Sequence record: MZ311864.1
Source of the DNA: Escherichia phage vB_EcoM_LNA4
DNA: 64,000 nt
Strand: one strand, 5' to 3'
The notes below the pieces were generated by a model. The model ran no database searches. It saw nothing but the letters and a program-made list of their open reading frames with translations, and was not told the DNA's origin. Below are positions 3,751-59,549 of this stretch, one piece after another (the first letter of the stretch is position 1; the number at the start of each line of letters is the position of its first letter). A program made the translations under genes and the position numbers.

Positions 3751-3810
3751 AGTGTCTCCTTTTATTGTCTAAGAGGAGCGTAACAGCTATTTAATGTGTT
3801 GTCAACAACA

Positions 3811-3836
3811 AAAAAGGCCCCGAAGGGCCTTTATTA
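3811..3836. terminator. bidirectional rho-independent terminator
   Basis: GGCCC-CGAA-GGGCC hairpin flanked by A-run and T-run, immediately after gene ending at 3834. Confidence 0.6.
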
Positions 3837-4985
3837 AGATATTGCTGTTGTGTCTAGAGGTACAAAAGTATAAACCCTTGTTGTGCCAAGACCCGGCAGC
3901 AGTCCGGTGGTGGTATCCTGACCAGTTCCGTACAACGTTCCGTTTATCAGAAGATATGCTGCTTTATAAGCACCACGGGTTCCGTGGTATTCCCCGTCCA
4001 AAACCTGTGTTCCAAGTGCTGTGAAAGAATACTTTATACTTTGCCCTATAACACCATCACCCTGCAACTGACCACTGCTTGTACCAGTGTAGTAAACCCT
4101 ACCAGTTGGGTGCAGATACCTGGCGGAGTACAACCCGATGTACAACTTAGGCGCTCCCTTGGATTTATCCGTGATGTTTGGTGCTACAGCAGTCGGATTT
4201 GAGTAGTTCACACCACCAGTTGCCCCTGTTCCAAGGCTTCCGTCAAATTGTCGTCCTTGAGCATACAAGACATACGCAGATCCGGTCTCCACAACCCTGA
4301 ACCAACCATTAGGTCCGGCTACAATATCCACCACAGTGTTGACGGCGGCTTGTAATGTCCAAGTTGACACAACTGTGGATGTTACCCCAGCCTGTCCAAA
4401 GTCAGAGTTCCCAGCAACATACACAGCCCCCGTGTTCAGCAGCATGTATGAGGTATCAATACTCCCCCAATCAAAGGTGATTTTCTTAACGTTGGTGAAG
4501 TCGGTCCTCATGGTCAGTTGTCTTACGGTTGTTGTATTCCCCTGACCGAGACCGCCGTTACCATTTCTACCGCACATTGCGTATTGCCCGTTTGTGAACA
4601 CCACAGCTATAGATTGATACCCTATGGACACTTCCTTAATGGTCAGCCCAGCCGTGTACGTCATATATGCAGAGACATCCACCGGGGAGGTTATAGTAGA
4701 TCCGAGGGCTGTTGGGAACATAAAGTTGTTACCCATAAACATCCAGCGCCCATCAACCATTTTGAAGAGGACTGCACGGAAACCCACCCAAAAATCCTCA
4801 ACCCCAGCAGACAAAAGTCGCCAAGTCGTTGTTGTCGCCCCTGTTCCACTAAAATACTGGTCACCAATTGTGTAGAGGTTCCCAGATGTTGACAGGGCAA
4901 CGATACCGTTGTCACCAGCATCGAATTTCTTAATATTCCCTGTCGGTACTGGGGTCTTCCCACCAGCTAACATCATCTCGAACAT
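3834..4985 (-). CDS. RCC1-like repeat (beta-propeller) protein
   Basis: 383 aa, Gly/Thr-rich, about five repeats of the form G-N-x-x-G-Q-L/A-G (GRNGNGGLGQG, AGNSDFGQAG, GTSSGQLQGDG...). Confidence 0.5.
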   Translation of the reverse strand: MFEMMLAGGKTPVPTGNIKKFDAGDNGIVALSTSGNLYTIGDQYFSGTGATTTTWRLLSAGVEDFWVGFRAVLFKMVDGRWMFMGNNFMFPTALGSTITSPVDVSAYMTYTAGLTIKEVSIGYQSIAVVFTNGQYAMCGRNGNGGLGQGNTTTVRQLTMRTDFTNVKKITFDWGSIDTSYMLLNTGAVYVAGNSDFGQAGVTSTVVSTWTLQAAVNTVVDIVAGPNGWFRVVETGSAYVLYAQGRQFDGSLGTGATGGVNYSNPTAVAPNITDKSKGAPKLYIGLYSARYLHPTGRVYYTGTSSGQLQGDGVIGQSIKYSFTALGTQVLDGEYHGTRGAYKAAYLLINGTLYGTGQDTTTGLLPGLGTTRVYTFVPLDTTAIS

Positions 4986-5025
4986 TGCTTTTCTCCTATT
5001 TGTAAACCTTTATTTTATCACAAAA

Positions 5026-6275: not shown

Positions 6276-6485
6276 TCATCCAACACCCCTTACCTGTATT
6301 GTTTTTGCAACATGGAGCAATGTGTCGATAACAAGATTGTACTTACCCCTAGAAACAGAGTTTTTCGGTTCCTTGTCCCTTAAAAATCGGCAGGTATCTA
6401 TCTGGCTAATGATCTCTTCCATGATCTCTTTTCTCTCAAGCATCTTGCCTAATTCCTCTCTTGCATCACCGTACTCATCGGACAT
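6276..6485 (-). CDS. hypothetical protein
   Basis: 69-aa ORF with AAGGAG RBS. Confidence 0.3.
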   Translation of the reverse strand: MSDEYGDAREELGKMLERKEIMEEIISQIDTCRFLRDKEPKNSVSRGKYNLVIDTLLHVAKTIQVRGVG

Positions 6486-7623
6486 TCTTTTCTCCTTTTG
6501 CTACCTTCAGCATGTGGATTGTGTTCTCCAGGTCTTTCTTCGGCTTACTGTACAGCTTACGACCGTGTTTTGCAAGGAACTTCTCCAGATAGTCCAGTGC
6601 TTTGAATTCAACAATTTCGTTGATAACCTCTGGCACGTTGAACTCTTCCTTCAGCATCTGGTATGCTGCCTTTTTCACCGTAATTGGTGTGCGGCCTTGG
6701 CTGATTGCCATTTCAGTAACCAATCGCTTACGGCTATCAGACCAGTTAGCATTGATAGGGAATGCCTTATATCCGTTTTGCTCCTGGAAAATCTTCACTG
6801 CACGTTCTTGCAGGGTGTCTTTGTCATAACCACGACAATAGTAGCTCGACTCATCCTGATGGTCGAAGTGCTCCAGGTCGTCGTAGTCGCCAACACCGAG
6901 GTCTGCCAGTAACAGAACATCGTCCGACTGAGACAGAAGGCGGGTAGCATTCCAGCGTACCTCAAAATCACTCGCCTGGTTGCGATCACGGTCGAGTGTG
7001 AACACCTCAGCAGGGAAATCGTAGTCGAACTTATACTTACCCTTAACCGTGGTAACGTACAGCCCATTCACATATAGGCGGCAGTCATTGTTGTTCTTTT
7101 TGGCATAAGCCTTACCAAAGCAACGGTCTTCGACGACAATCTCAAGATCTGTACGGGCTGGCGCGTAATTCTTTTTAACAAGATTCATTGCAGAATCAGG
7201 AACGCCGCTGATCGTGATCGTTACACGGTCTTCATCGCGACTTAAAAACTGGTTTTCGATGATATTGATAGACAAAACCTTCTCATCAAAAAGGTCGTCC
7301 ATCTCGAACTGTGGTTTCCACAGGTCTTTCCCGTTTTTCACCGTGATATCAGCGCCTTCACGCAACAGGCACAGGAAGCCCACCTTCATCCCCTCACCGA
7401 ACTTACCGATCTTGGTGTCGTCATCCTCTTTGGTGGTTTTACCCATAAGAAGGGACTGGATAGGCATCTTGCCACCGCAGGAAGAAATGGTGATCGAGTC
7501 ATTGTCGAACAGCACAGTATGATCACCTGCGTCAATGGCGTTTTGAATAAGCTCACGGATGCCTTCCCACCATGACCAATGGGCTACATATGTTGGGGCA
7601 ATGCTTAACTTGATACTTTTCAT
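6475..7623 (-). CDS. GHKL-type ATPase domain protein
   Basis: N-terminal Bergerat-fold motif ELIQNAIDA and G-rich box GKFGEGMKVGF; start set at MKSIKL with AAGGAGA RBS. Confidence 0.55.
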   Translation of the reverse strand: MKSIKLSIAPTYVAHWSWWEGIRELIQNAIDAGDHTVLFDNDSITISSCGGKMPIQSLLMGKTTKEDDDTKIGKFGEGMKVGFLCLLREGADITVKNGKDLWKPQFEMDDLFDEKVLSINIIENQFLSRDEDRVTITISGVPDSAMNLVKKNYAPARTDLEIVVEDRCFGKAYAKKNNNDCRLYVNGLYVTTVKGKYKFDYDFPAEVFTLDRDRNQASDFEVRWNATRLLSQSDDVLLLADLGVGDYDDLEHFDHQDESSYYCRGYDKDTLQERAVKIFQEQNGYKAFPINANWSDSRKRLVTEMAISQGRTPITVKKAAYQMLKEEFNVPEVINEIVEFKALDYLEKFLAKHGRKLYSKPKKDLENTIHMLKVAKGEKNVR

Positions 7624-7742
7624 AGTTTCTCCTTGAAACGTTTTATGTCCAAGCATTATTACACAAAGAAAACAGATGTCAACCATTGACTAAGGGTTTT
7701 TATCCTGATAATCTTACCAGACACATACAGAGGAGACATAAA

Positions 7743-7991
7743 ATGTCCGAACAAGTTCTTGAACAAGATAAGTACAAAATTTACGAAGTCGTCCTTGTAG
7801 ACGGTCAGTTCGAAGCGACTATCCGTGACATCTTCACCAGGACTATTCGTGTGGAAGGAAAGAATGGTGAAGAAGACACCTTCGTTACCCACGTATCCTA
7901 CCGTATGCACGAGAAGGAGTGGTGGTACGAAGAAATCCTGCCGCATCGTGTGCAGAAACTCAATGGAAAAATCAACTTTGGAGCTAAATAA
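7743..7991 (+). CDS. hypothetical protein
   Basis: Plus-strand ORF MSEQVLEQDKYKIYEV... inside minus-strand region, GAGGAGA RBS. Confidence 0.45.
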   Translation: MSEQVLEQDKYKIYEVVLVDGQFEATIRDIFTRTIRVEGKNGEEDTFVTHVSYRMHEKEWWYEEILPHRVQKLNGKINFGAK

Positions 7992-8302
7992 TGGATTTAC
8001 TGGAAGATAAAGGCGGTCGTCCGGACCGCAATGAAATTGATCCTCGTGTCGGGCCTGGTAAGGTGTGTATCATCTACGGTTTCGACCCGAAAAACCCCAA
8101 CACTGGGCCTCTCAATGGGTTACAGTGCATGGTACATGAAAAGGTTATCCGTAGCGGAAATATCTTCTTCCCTTTTGGGGAGACATGGTATGCCTGCACC
8201 GTATATGGCCTGAAGGGTATCACAAATCTCCGTGCTGATCACCTGATGGTGACCGATGACTCCGATGTCCTTATTATTGAGAAAATGAGGGCTGATAAAT
8301 AA
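7991..8302 (+). CDS. hypothetical protein
   Basis: 103 aa, TAATG overlap with preceding plus-strand gene. Confidence 0.45.
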   Translation: MDLLEDKGGRPDRNEIDPRVGPGKVCIIYGFDPKNPNTGPLNGLQCMVHEKVIRSGNIFFPFGETWYACTVYGLKGITNLRADHLMVTDDSDVLIIEKMRADK

Positions 8303-9220: not shown

Positions 9221-9739
9221 TCAGAATAGTGGATACAGATATATAATCATGCTAATTATTGCATAGATAACGAATACAGCAAAGAACACCTTGTTTGGTG
9301 GATTGCGGAACCAGTCTTTAATACGGTATCCCCATCCGAGAGACTTTTTGTACTCATTGATGATCTTGTCGATGGTGCGATAAAGATCACGAATGGCAGT
9401 CTCAAAGCCTTCGTATTCATCAAAGGCCTCTTCCATGTGTTCAGGATCAAGTTTACCCATATCACCAACACGGAAAGTGTAATGCGCTGGGTTTTGGGTA
9501 TCTACTCCGCGAGTTACTTCCAGTCGCCCTACACGAATGGTATAAAGGATGCTGTTCTTAGCATCCCTGATAATAAGCACTCTTTCATCAGCAGCGTACT
9601 TTCGTACAAGTGCGATGCAACCCTTGGAGTTCTCTATAAACCCCTTCTCCAGCAGAGTCTGCCAGTGTTCTTGTAGGGTAGGGTGTTCACGAACTAATTT
9701 CTGAAACATACTACCTCCTATCATATTATTAACCTCCAT
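9221..9739 (-). CDS. hypothetical protein with C-terminal membrane anchor
   Basis: 172 aa; terminal hydrophobic segment FFAVFVIYAIISMIIYLYPLF. Confidence 0.4.
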   Translation of the reverse strand: MEVNNMIGGSMFQKLVREHPTLQEHWQTLLEKGFIENSKGCIALVRKYAADERVLIIRDAKNSILYTIRVGRLEVTRGVDTQNPAHYTFRVGDMGKLDPEHMEEAFDEYEGFETAIRDLYRTIDKIINEYKKSLGWGYRIKDWFRNPPNKVFFAVFVIYAIISMIIYLYPLF

Positions 9740-54284: not shown

Positions 54285-54313
54285 TTGCAAAAGATTGTTT
54301 TCACTGATAAAGT
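54285..54313 (+). promoter_or_regulatory. sigma70-like promoter
   Basis: TTGCAA, 17-bp spacer, TAAAGT upstream of tRNA at 54322. Confidence 0.3.
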
Positions 54314-54321
54314 AATTACAT

Positions 54322-54410
54322 GGTTCTTTGACCGAGAGGCCGATGGTAGCAGGCTGTTAACCTGCCTGGAGTAATCCACGACGAAGGTTCGAATCCTTCA
54401 GGAACCGCCA
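54322..54410 (+). tRNA. tRNA with GTT anticodon (Asn) and long variable arm
   Basis: Canonical loop CTGTTAA on GCAGG/CCTGC stem, 17-nt variable arm with TGGA/TCCA stem, T-arm GAAGGTTCGAATCCTTC, G73, CCA. Confidence 0.6.
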
Positions 54411-54443
54411 AATTAGGTGATACGCTACCTTAAGTGCGAACTT

Positions 54444-54520
54444 GAAAATTAATGGGGCCGTGGCTGACAAGGTAATGGTGCCGCACTGTCTATGCGGAAA
54501 ATGAGGGTTCGATCCCCTTC
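54444..54520 (+). tRNA. tRNA-Asp (GTC)
   Basis: Loop CTGTCTA on CCGCA/TGCGG stem, T-arm GAGGGTTCGATCCCCTT, CCA. Confidence 0.6.
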
Positions 54521-54713
54521 GGTCTCGCCAATTTGATATGTTGATGTAAATTGCCGGAAGGCACTCAAAATGAGTTCGACATATCAAACCAAATACGCTC
54601 TTGCAGGAAAGGTTAGCCTCCCTGCAATGTCACACTAGGTGATCAGAGCGGATCAAATTAGCTAGCCAGCGATACCAGTTGCAGTGTCTGGGACAATTAA
54701 AATTCTGCACCTT

Positions 54714-54791
54714 CGGAGCGTAGCGCAGTCTGGTCAGCGTGGGAGCCTTGGATGCTCTGGGTCGCAGGTTCGAATCCTGCCGCTCCGACCA
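54714..54791 (+). tRNA. tRNA-Pro (TGG)
   Basis: Loop CTTGGAT, T-arm GCAGGTTCGAATCCTGC, CCA. Confidence 0.8.
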
Positions 54792-54796
54792 ATTTA

Positions 54797-54872
54797 GCAG
54801 GTATAGTTCAACTGGACAGAGCATCAGTTTACGAAGCTGAGAATCGGGGTTCGAATCCCTGTATCTGCACCA
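54797..54872 (+). tRNA. tRNA-Arg (ACG)
   Basis: Loop TTACGAA, T-arm CGGGGTTCGAATCCCTG, CCA. Confidence 0.8.
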
Positions 54873-54907
54873 AATTAAGGCTTGGATTTCTTCGGACCCA
54901 AGCGCAC

Positions 54908-54984
54908 GGGCGATTGATGGAATTGGTATACGTGTCGGATTTAGATTCCGAATTTTGGGGGTTCGAGTCCCCTGTCGCCCACCA
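54908..54984 (+). tRNA. tRNA-Leu (TAG), short variable arm
   Basis: Loop TTTAGAT on TCGGA/TCCGA stem, A73, T-arm GGGGGTTCGAGTCCCCT, CCA; no long variable arm. Confidence 0.6.
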
Positions 54985-54991
54985 ATCCTTC

Positions 54992-55067
54992 GGGACTGTA
55001 GCTCAGTTGGTAGAGCACCTGATTGAAGATCAGGGTGTCGGTGGTTCGAATCCACTCGGTCCCGCCA
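54992..55067 (+). tRNA. tRNA-Phe (GAA)
   Basis: Loop TTGAAGA on CCTGA/TCAGG stem, T-arm GGTGGTTCGAATCCACT, CCA. Confidence 0.8.
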
Positions 55068-55073
55068 AATAAT

Positions 55074-55146
55074 TGCGAGCTAGAATTCTGGTGAATTCAC
55101 GAGTCTCATAAGCTTGTTCAGAGGGGTTCGATTCCGCTGCTCGCAA
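55074..55146 (+). tRNA. tRNA with CAT anticodon (Met or Ile2), no encoded CCA
   Basis: Perfect acceptor TGCGAGC/GCTCGCA, loop CTCATAA, T-loop TTCGATT; 3' end lacks CCA. Confidence 0.6.
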
Positions 55147-55163
55147 CTAACAGAGGACTTAAT

Positions 55164-57950: not shown

Positions 57951-57959
57951 TTGACAAGG

Positions 57960-57990
57960 CCCTTATTTTATGATAAGGGCTTTATTTTTA
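57960..57990 (+). terminator. rho-independent terminator
   Basis: GCCCTTAT...ATAAGGGC hairpin followed by TTTATTTTT. Confidence 0.6.
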
Positions 57991-58049
57991 TCAGGTTTCA
58001 TGGTAAACTACCTCCTATAGGCCAATTTAAGGCACAAAATGGAGGTCTT

Positions 58050-59549
58050 TTGAGTAAAACATTCGGACCTGCCAGCCCCAAGCAGAAAATGATCCTGGAA
58101 AACAACGCACAAATCCTGATCATTGGGGGTGCGGCGGGGTCAGGTAAATCTTACCTGCTTCAATTGATGCCTCTCAACATTATCGACGACCCAAGAACGA
58201 ACTGCATTATGTTCCGTAGAAACACCCCTCAGTTGAAGGGTGGTGGTGGTCTGTATGATACTGCACGAGGCATCTACACACAGCTTGCTCCTGAATGGAA
58301 GCCACGCTTCAGGGAGAAAGACCTTGAGGCAATTTTCCCTTCCGGTGCGAAAGTTAAGTGGTCCCACATGGAATATGAGAAAGATAAGTATTCTCACCAG
58401 GGTCTGCAATATACCTTTGTAGGGTTTGACGAAGGAACACAGTTTGAATGGTCTCAGATCGAATACCTTATGTCTCGTCTTCGTTCTGAATCCAAATACC
58501 CAAGCCGCATGGTTATCTCCTGTAACCCCGACCCAGACCACAAGATCAAAGAGTTGATCGAATGGTATCTTGATGATGATGGGTTCCCGATCCCTGAGCG
58601 TGACGGTGTTATCCGTTGGTTCATTCGCCGTGATGGTGAATTCATTTGGGGGGAAACTGCGGAGGAGTTGATCGAGAAATATTGGGACGGTGTGGATGTT
58701 CGTAAGAAGCCAAAGCCCCTGTCCTTCTCATTCATCAGTGCGACTATCTTTGATAACCCACCGATGCTTGACAATAACCCGGATTACCTTGCCTTCCTTG
58801 AAGGTCTCCCAGAGATCGAAAAGGCACAGCTACTCCACGGTAACTGGAAGGTTCGCCCTGAAGGTGCAAACTATTTCCAGCGATCCTATTTGAAAGAAGT
58901 TCCTTGCCTTCCTTTGGGTGTGACATCAGTCCGTCCTTATGACAAGGCAGGCACAGAGAGAACCTCTGGCAACAGATATCCCGACTTTACCGCATCTGTT
59001 AAGGTGAGTAAAGATAGTGACGGGTTCTACTACCTGTCTGGTGACTATTGCCCTGAATTCGTTGATGACGGAATGTATTCAACGCAAACACAAGGTCGTT
59101 TCTGTAAAAAAGCTGGTGAACGAGATGTTATCATTAAGAAGCAAGCCCACTTTGATGGTGATGACGTTGTTATCATTTTCAACGTTGACCCAGGTCAGGC
59201 TGGCATTAGTGAGTTCACAACAAGTTCCCGTGAGCTTCTTGCTGAAGGATTTATCGTAGAACGAGATCCTACACCGGGTAACAAATCAAAACTTACACGC
59301 TTCACTCCATTTGCAAAACTGGCCCAGTCTGGCATGGTGCGTATCGTAAGAGATAGCTTTGATGCTAAAACTTACGAAGCCCTTATGACCGAACTTGAGA
59401 AGTTTAATGGAGAGCGAAGTACAACAACCCGTAAGGATGACTGGGCTGACTGCGTGGCTTCAGGTATTAACTACCTTGAGAAGAACGAAGTCATCAGACC
59501 TGTTGTAATCCCGAAAATTGTTGCTCCGACCTTGTATAAAAGACTTTAA
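58050..59549 (+). CDS. terminase large subunit
   Basis: Walker A ILIIGGAAGSGKSYLLQ; about 500 aa; probable TTG start after GGAGG; ORF-track ATG at 57951 lies in the terminator. Confidence 0.8.
   Translation: MSKTFGPASPKQKMILENNAQILIIGGAAGSGKSYLLQLMPLNIIDDPRTNCIMFRRNTPQLKGGGGLYDTARGIYTQLAPEWKPRFREKDLEAIFPSGAKVKWSHMEYEKDKYSHQGLQYTFVGFDEGTQFEWSQIEYLMSRLRSESKYPSRMVISCNPDPDHKIKELIEWYLDDDGFPIPERDGVIRWFIRRDGEFIWGETAEELIEKYWDGVDVRKKPKPLSFSFISATIFDNPPMLDNNPDYLAFLEGLPEIEKAQLLHGNWKVRPEGANYFQRSYLKEVPCLPLGVTSVRPYDKAGTERTSGNRYPDFTASVKVSKDSDGFYYLSGDYCPEFVDDGMYSTQTQGRFCKKAGERDVIIKKQAHFDGDDVVIIFNVDPGQAGISEFTTSSRELLAEGFIVERDPTPGNKSKLTRFTPFAKLAQSGMVRIVRDSFDAKTYEALMTELEKFNGERSTTTRKDDWADCVASGINYLEKNEVIRPVVIPKIVAPTLYKRL

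Follow-up and report, generated by a model that had tools for sequence, protein, structure and literature searches.

A seven-bladed RCC1-like propeller with a shared N-terminal leader in Escherichia phage vB_EcoM_LNA4: a candidate docked binding protein of the virion

Introduction

Why does a phage encode a small RCC1-like propeller at a distance from its tail genes, and where would such a protein act? The question is raised by one gene in a 64,000-nucleotide stretch of DNA from Escherichia phage vB_EcoM_LNA4 (MZ311864.1). The whole stretch is called the window here. The gene lies on the minus strand and encodes a protein of 383 amino acids rich in Gly (14.4%) and Thr (13.3%). A first-pass annotation, made by a model from the DNA letters, had described it as an RCC1-like repeat protein of the early region and as a possible effector or inhibitor that binds a host protein. 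Its coordinates (3834–4985) and its Gly/Thr-rich product match the open reading frame (ORF) list and the composition exactly. In the present analysis, the protein joins a catalogued phage family whose members have been reported from virions and are functionally uncharacterised. We propose, at about an even chance, that the gene encodes a virion-associated accessory binding protein, which is docked by a short N-terminal leader and displayed for host-surface binding.

Results

Fold of the gene product

Sequence profiles pointed to RCC1 repeats. Pfam PF13540 (RCC1_2) matched in three stretches with an E-value of 4.1e-10 and 39.6 bits against a cut-off of 22. It was the only one of three RCC1 models to pass its curated threshold. 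PF25390 (RCC1-like domain; E 7.8e-21) reached 75 bits, below its curated cut-off of 150, and PF00415 reached 15.7 bits, below 21.7, so that for these two models only the E-value is significant. PHROG 4219 ("regulator of chromosome condensation") covered residues 4–374 with an E-value of 1.4e-39, and PHROG 11922 ("tail protein") aligned with residues 2–207. Searches of PDB sequences with phmmer and with a profile returned HERC1, RPGR, HERC2, UVR8 and RCC1 (profile E-values from 4e-21 to 2e-12). The 39 homologues found are all full-length, with about 375–390 amino acids and identities of 33–90%.

An AlphaFold2 model was built with 40 homologues in the alignment. It has a pLDDT of 93, a pTM of 0.90 and 28 strands, which form seven blades of four. 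According to DSSP, the blades comprise residues 18–60, 62–103, 116–160, 166–211, 218–271, 281–323 and 332–376. The best Foldseek match in the PDB was UVR8 (E 1e-20, TM 0.75), followed by HERC2, RPGR and RCC1, and the top 45 matches were all proteins with an RCC1-like domain (RLD), with TM values of up to 0.76. For the RCC1, UVR8, HERC1/2 and RPGR proteins the TM values were 0.63–0.76 at a probability of 1.00. The propeller is free-standing, as the protein has no other domain. By this predicted, not solved, structure the gene product is an RCC1-like seven-bladed propeller, and its repeats and closed seven-blade fold place it in the RLD superfamily.

Pfam, AlphaFold2 and Foldseek therefore agree with the propeller called in the first-pass annotation. 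Its three example motifs were found at residues 138–149, 191–200 and 299–309, while its count of about five repeats has to be raised to seven. Each blade has one G-x-x-G-x-L-G-type motif, in the long loop that follows its third strand, and in blades 1, 2 and 7 this motif is degenerate. A beta-helix, named in that annotation as the fold that would speak against a propeller, is excluded by the model and its Foldseek neighbours. Of the two templates suggested for fold recognition, RCC1 was recovered. The other, BLIP-II, was absent from the 50 best structural matches in the PDB and from the phmmer and profile sequence matches.

The loops of blades 4–6 vary most among the homologues, and the loop-by-loop conservation of the propeller gave no clean one-face pattern of variability that would mark a candidate binding face. 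A profile search of 1.84 billion representatives returned 49,239 RCC1-like proteins, mainly giant multi-propeller proteins, and only about 14 full-length relatives of about 380 amino acids. It added no information on function.

A conserved leader shared by unrelated proteins

The propeller is preceded by a leader with the consensus M-x-E-M-M-x-x-G-G-K-x-P-x-P-x-G-N. The window protein begins with MFEMMLAGGK, in which no features of a signal peptide were seen by inspection. Residues 1–9 are predicted to be disordered (pLDDT about 40) and the first strand starts at residue 18. The column entropy of residues 1–17 in the 40 homologues is 1.46, compared with 1.48 for the beta-strand core, and Glu3 is nearly invariant.

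The start M-x-E-[MLI]-[ML] is common to proteins with RCC1-like, LamG, CB7_55-type and other cargo. In Enterobacter phage EC152, the LamG protein at the corresponding position begins with MFEAMLTAGKNAPIVGN and a second LamG protein also carries the leader. At another locus, beside replication genes, LamG proteins start with the leader in F1M1E (MQEILLAAG), PVP-SE1 gp10 (MKELLLVGG) and EspYZU15 (MEELLLVN). CB7_55, which represents another fold type, begins with MQEMMIVTSK. The true start of PVP-SE1 gp10 (L007 5995–6660) is probably 19 codons upstream of the annotated one; a GTG in frame at position 6752 of the PVP-SE1 record restores a leader, VKELLLVGG..., and is covered by the tblastn alignment with the EC152 LamG protein.

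No other leader-bearing ORF was found in the window. Likewise, no structural-module protein of phage W70 (1–50 kb) starts with the leader, where four pattern matches were internal and at chance level; a protein of this kind might have hinted at a docking site used in common. A 287-kb contig of an uncultured phage from IMG/VR (3300013104_000001) encodes two small proteins that start with MLEMLLAGGKKK and MLEMLFVGGKKK (L015 758–1267 and L019 1–532, both on the minus strand). By eye, one of the two is similar to CB7_55; Pfam gave no match for the other. Therefore, the leader of the Vequintavirinae type also occurs in a jumbo phage.

Exchange of RCC1-like and LamG genes in one slot

Like EC152 and Cronobacter phage GAP31, the phage is assigned to Seunavirus, Vequintavirinae. 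Its head-gene region in the window shares 96.6% identity with these two phages, whereas only half of the DNA around the RCC1-like gene aligns with them. In EC152, GAP31 and 4MG the same slot is filled by a gene of 217 codons for a leader-bearing protein of the Laminin_G_3/ConA-like lectin fold. The 40-nt upstream spacer is nearly identical to that of EC152, with two differing nucleotides just before the ATG, despite the different gene behind it. In contrast, the leader codons of the window and EC152 are far more diverged than this spacer, although the peptide is kept. Since the codons have diverged, the peptide is kept and the spacer is nearly identical, selection rather than a fresh recombination scar appears to preserve the leader.

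Other relatives show further states of the slot or of the gene family. Cronobacter phage EspYZU15 has an intact RCC1-like gene of 43% identity in it. Salmonella phage PVP-SE1 retains only an N-terminal remnant of 100 codons, gene 179 (L005 4001–4303), which matches about the first 87 residues of the RCC1-like protein at 55% identity with the leader intact. It is followed by about 2.2 kb without an annotated coding sequence (CDS), and the region looks like a decayed copy of the cassette. Tandem RCC1-like copies are present in Certrevirus F1M1E (two) and Septuagintavirus W70 (three). A homology search of phage CB7 gave no RCC1-like match, and the CB7 paper does not mention RCC1 or lectin. Because slot content and gene copy number vary across relatives in this way, the gene reads as a cassette that is dispensable and mobile and can duplicate.

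About 4 kb upstream there is a second variable slot. In the window it carries a gene for a 172-aa protein with a C-terminal hydrophobic segment (9221–9739, minus strand), which matches PHROG 7821 "virion structural protein" (E 3e-85). The syntenic position of EC152 holds an unrelated 204-aa leader-bearing LamG protein, MQEMLLGG... (L001 9305–9919, minus strand).

Relatives in purified virions

Septuagintavirus W70 encodes three tandem RCC1-like proteins, W70_237, W70_238 and W70_239, the last of which is 52% identical to the window protein. In the ESI-MS/MS analysis of purified W70 virions they gave 233, 196 and 141 spectra, respectively, at a cut-off of 25, and were among 28 virion proteins with spectra comparable to those of baseplate proteins (PMC11370258). 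RCC1-like proteins that stand alone and are more distantly related were also found in virions of jumbo phages, namely GAP32 gp001 (PMC5259590) and phAPEC6 gp003, gp005, gp007 and gp009 (PMC7247149). In addition, PVP-SE1 gp010 and CB7_55 are listed as virion structural proteins (Table S6 of PMC11370258). The former is a leader-LamG protein from the genus of the window phage, and the latter, which adjoins the DNA polymerase gene of Pectobacterium phage CB7, is annotated "structural protein, MS/MS confirmed". Therefore, a leader-bearing protein has been reported in virions for each of the three cargo classes of the Vequintavirinae.

By extension from these published homologues, the window protein is probably a virion protein too. 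The first-pass annotation had placed it outside the virion, and this is contradicted by the mass spectrometry of W70_237–239, GAP32 and phAPEC6. It had also named detection in virions as a fibre or receptor-binding component as a finding against its proposal. Of this, the part on virion presence holds for the orthologues.

Three genes upstream of the remnant in PVP-SE1 lies gene 176 (L005 3231–3491), whose annotation notes similarity to rV5 gp133, an "unknown structural protein" in Table S6 (PMC11370258). It may be another virion protein encoded in a non-structural region.

A parallel leader in Rak2-like jumbo phages

A comparable arrangement was found in Rak2-like jumbo phages. Salmonella phage Munch has a tandem array of at least 12 genes of about 375–400 codons annotated "DNA condensation protein", together with two unrelated genes. 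All 13 complete genes begin with MIPF(A/T)RIxxYGN; 11 are RCC1-like and two are not, one of them being Gly-rich. The leader is 80% identical across the array, compared with 19% for the remainder. In phage CBB, the tandem genes CBB_548–552 encode LamG, Kelch-propeller and unknown folds behind the start MLPFxRxxEYxN (read for CBB_548–551, as the start of CBB_552 falls beyond the stretch covered). Annotation calls four of these five structural.

A degenerate DNA pattern of this leader gave 20 matches in IMG/VR on contigs of 348–378 kb. Every one of the 20 lies at the start of an ORF of 76–396 amino acids, three of which are cut by the end of the locus. Pfam assigned 8 LamG, 6 RCC1-like, 3 Kelch and 1 Gly-rich domains among 26 leader-bearing proteins and left the rest unassigned. 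The Rak2-type leader has no conserved Glu. Its homology with the Vequintavirinae leader was considered; with 3 identities in 9 positions it is suggestive only and is not claimed.

Gene signals, genome setting and expression

The features of the gene are collected in Table 1. With its own predicted ribosome-binding site, promoter-like element and terminator, it reads as a self-contained cassette. The flanking terminator of the first-pass annotation was recovered as a hairpin pattern with a T tract; its G+C-rich stem (3832–3813; 8 pairs, 5 of them G-C) begins one base past the stop codon. A promoter consensus scan made no call at the putative extended -10. No second RCC1-like copy was found in the window by tblastn.

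Table 1. Features of the RCC1-like gene and its flanks in the window
Feature	Position	Strand	Details and basis
CDS, RCC1-like propeller protein with N-terminal leader	3834..4985	-	383 aa, ATG, stop TAA 3836-3834; ORF list, Pfam, PHROG
Leader MFEMMLAGGKTPVPTGN, codons 1–17, outside the propeller	4935..4985	-	AlphaFold2 model, column entropy
Predicted seven-bladed beta-propeller, residues 18–376	3858..4934	-	DSSP on AlphaFold2 model, Foldseek
Shine-Dalgarno AGGAG, 7-nt spacer to ATG	4993..4997	-	Sequence inspection
Promoter-like extended -10 TGATAAAAT, within the 40-nt intergenic spacer	5012..5020	-	Sequence inspection
Intrinsic-terminator-like hairpin AAAGGCCC-TTCG-GGGCCTTT and T tract	3803..3832	-	Terminator scan, sequence

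Genes for DNA ligase, exonucleases, ribonucleotide reductase, thymidylate synthase and two nucleotidyltransferases share a minus-strand block of about 44 kb with the RCC1-like gene, which stands at its distal end. On the plus strand, the block beyond 44.6 kb carries NAMPT, 22 tRNA genes, terminase and the head genes. The tRNA cluster (49029–55147, plus strand) lies between NAMPT (46077–47762) and terminase (57951–59549). The immediate neighbours of the RCC1-like gene are small ORFs without assigned function, and tail genes are absent nearby. Thus the description of this setting as small early genes rather than tail genes was right about the genes, and its word "early" was drawn from position. 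We find "early region" a reasonable positional label.

No transcriptome or expression timing for Vequintavirinae was found in the literature. A late-promoter motif common with the head genes was considered and rejected, as no enrichment was seen for TATAAATA or related words. Sigma-70-like extended -10 elements precede both the RCC1-like gene and a head gene, and for this reason expression timing is unreadable from the sequence. A sigma-70-like promoter was seen before the prohead protease gene (upstream of 61182, plus strand), with TTGCAA, a 17-nt spacer, TAAAAT and an upstream TG. The head genes may use host-type promoters, and therefore the promoter type cannot separate early from late genes.

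Two further observations concern the minus-strand block. At 7686–8302 it is interrupted by two plus-strand ORFs of 101 and 103 amino acids with an ATGA overlap, and the EC152 annotation carries the same inverted pair (L001 7846–8408). The adjoining gene (6475–7686, minus strand) encodes a 403-aa protein of PHROG 6077 (unknown function) with weak GHKL/HATPase_c_3 similarity at residues 43–135, and CB7_61 resembles a truncated homologue of 212 amino acids.

Discussion

The closest known system is the phage family of PHROG 4219, which includes W70_237–239, proteins of CR9 and CR3, GAP32 gp001 and the arrays of phAPEC6, 121Q, PBECO4 and Munch. Like the window protein, its members are free-standing propellers of about 380 amino acids with a short leader. 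They are encoded outside the structural module, often in tandem arrays, and have been detected in virions. The window differs in copy number, with a single gene compared with two or three in Certrevirus and Septuagintavirus and 11–13 in jumbo phages. Moreover, its gene occupies a slot that is held by a LamG gene in the nearest relatives, and the jumbo-phage members use the leader MIPFxRIxxYGN. The name "regulator of chromosome condensation" given to this family should not be read as a function.

How would such a protein serve the phage? In the mechanism considered here, the flexible conserved leader of about 17 residues would dock the protein onto a platform of the phage particle, for which the tail-fibre/baseplate network is the most plausible choice. 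This would display the propeller as an additional host-surface binding module, which is probably glycan-binding. A slot in which the same leader carries either RCC1 or ConA/LamG cargo would permit a plug-and-play change of the binding target of the particle. We infer the docking role of the leader, the external location and the host-surface binding. Several relationships are consistent with this. The nearest PHROG relatives of the LamG cargo are baseplate-wedge and giant virion structural proteins. RCC1-like propellers are present in predicted T7-like tail fibres of Pseudomonas phages and in PVP-SE1 gp40, the counterpart of rV5 gp28 (putative tail fibre).

A precedent exists in Klebsiella podophages. 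The 29-residue N-terminal "conserved peptide" of KP32 gp38, a secondary receptor-binding protein, is an experimentally proven docking element, both necessary and sufficient for virion incorporation and transferable to foreign cargo (PMC13352976). KP32 gp38 and KP34 gp57 resemble the present proteins in having a short conserved N-terminal peptide followed by a swappable or unrelated remainder. However, there is no similarity between the peptide sequences, and their cargo is a trimeric beta-helix depolymerase encoded beside the gene of the primary receptor-binding protein, to a branching domain of which the peptide binds.

In a wider and more tentative form, to which we give somewhat less than an even chance, the leader would be a portable virion-incorporation tag by which large enterobacterial myophages hang interchangeable small binding domains on the particle. 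Propellers of the RCC1 and Kelch types, lectin-like LamG folds and Gly-rich domains would be among this cargo, with genes that lie dispersed or in arrays away from the structural module. Two leader types would be in use. Vequintavirinae and one 287-kb phage have MxEMMLxGGK, and Rak2-like jumbo phages have M[IL]PFxRxxxYGN.

Some points weigh against the docked binding protein. Virion presence rests on relatives of 52% identity and on more distant ones, not on the window phage, and mass spectrometry gives no position inside the particle. No such protein is placed in the cryo-EM work on the related phage phiTE, and phiTE gave no RCC1-like homologue in the searches run here. Virion proteins of the RCC1-like, LamG and CB7_55 types are in no PDB entry. 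Where docking peptides of receptor-binding proteins are known, the protein is a trimeric beta-helix enzyme with its gene beside that of its partner in the tail module, whereas the window protein is presumably a monomeric propeller whose gene stands with replication and accessory genes, about 50 kb distant from the head genes. The analysis identified no partner protein, and we know of no ligand for any phage RCC1-like propeller. The two leader types share only the weak pattern F-x-x-phi-L-x-x-G-[NK] and may be convergent.

One reason to think of another destination within the particle is the resemblance to T4. The T4 internal proteins IPI, IPII, IPIII and Alt have a common N-terminal leader of about 10 residues, unrelated fast-evolving cargo, variable loci and a virion destination. 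Their leaders end in a Glu that is cut by the gp21 protease, and their cargos are small and mostly basic. The common short leader, the unrelated cargo, the hypervariable slots and the tandem arrays seen here are hallmarks of such proteins, and the genes lie outside the structural module while the proteins are in virions, as for the T4 loci. In that case the leader could serve to target the protein to the capsid. The propeller would travel in the head, leave it together with the DNA and bind a host protein such as a defence factor, so that the effector of the first-pass annotation would be delivered ready-made. The phAPEC6 virion has an inner body, to which its authors suggested that the RCC1-like proteins belong (PMC7247149). 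Glu3 is nearly invariant and T4-type prohead proteases cut after Glu. However, at a T4-type site, (L/I)-x-E, cleavage after Glu3 would leave a propeptide of 3 residues, and a conserved Glu is missing from the Rak2-type leader. The EC152 homologue of the window prohead protease is annotated as XkdF-like, not T4 gp21-like. The window protein has no evident matching cleavage context and a neutral charge, and its folds, like those of the other cargos (RCC1 and Kelch propellers, LamG, Gly-rich), are propeller or lectin-like types typical of surface binders with relatives among the proteins of tail fibres and baseplates. Passage of a 41-kDa all-beta propeller through the tail tube would also require it to unfold. 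Packaging in the head fits the genetics equally well, and the cargo folds and leader chemistry less well. We consider it unlikely.

The effector reading in its original form, a non-structural early protein whose binding would inhibit or redirect a host protein in the way that BLIP-II acts on beta-lactamase, draws on the place of the gene among small non-structural genes, on its own promoter-like element and terminator, and on the use of propellers as common protein-binding scaffolds. The patchy distribution and the truncated remnant in PVP-SE1 further imply that the gene is dispensable. BLIP-II and the window protein are both small, free-standing propellers of seven blades and share the InterPro superfamily IPR009091 (PMC5259590, PMC11370258). 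However, BLIP-II is a secreted beta-lactamase inhibitor of Streptomyces and is not a near structural neighbour, whereas the window protein has no evident signal peptide and its family is reported in virions. The spectra of the three W70 relatives, in the range of baseplate proteins and far above the cut-off, are hard to combine with it, as are the leader-bearing proteins reported in virions of three further phages. If the protein were purely an intracellular effector, the mass-spectrometry results from several phages would have to be contamination. Since orthologues were detected in purified virions, the effector reading is unsupported, and we hold it to be quite improbable. A role inside the capsid, where a DNA condensation protein would order the packaged genome, is suggested by the annotation of PHROG 4219 and of many GenBank records, and the idea was raised in the W70 and phAPEC6 papers (PMC11370258, PMC7247149). 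The presence of the proteins in virions is in its favour. However, it rests only on the name of eukaryotic RCC1, to which the identity is about 17%, and the same leader also carries lectin-like and Kelch cargo. A strongly basic composition would be expected of DNA-condensing virion proteins. Instead, the window protein has 24 K+R against 22 D+E (pI 8.4), and across the 40 homologues the net charge is about zero, with only about 12% charged residues and pI values from 4.8 to 9.0. RCC1 itself is a Ran exchange factor and a nucleosome binder, and bacteria do not have these partners. This role is hardly credible to us.

The comparison with eukaryotic proteins leads to the same caution about names. 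RCC1, UVR8, HERC1/2 and RPGR have in common with the window protein the seven-bladed propeller and the G-x-x-G-Q-L-G-type repeat, at only 16–20% identity. Against RCC1 the identity is 16–17%, the N-terminal basic tail of RCC1 is missing, and the host has neither Ran nor nucleosomes. The window protein is a fold relative of these proteins, not a functional orthologue.

A literature search of limited scope found no paper that describes the shared leader or the RCC1/LamG cassette swap. The pattern deserves attention, since one short leader stands on at least four unrelated cargo folds and near-identical phages differ in the cargo of one slot. Some of the phages concerned are candidates for therapy against Cronobacter, Salmonella, Enterobacter and E. 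coli. Should the leader prove to be a docking tag, host-range determinants would be encoded partly outside the tail module, and the annotation "DNA condensation protein" in many GenBank records should go. Chosen binding domains might then be displayed on such phages, an engineering handle like the docking peptide of KP32. If the proposal is true, these phages would possess a general plug-and-play layer of host recognition or protein delivery, which has been missed by annotation based on structural modules.

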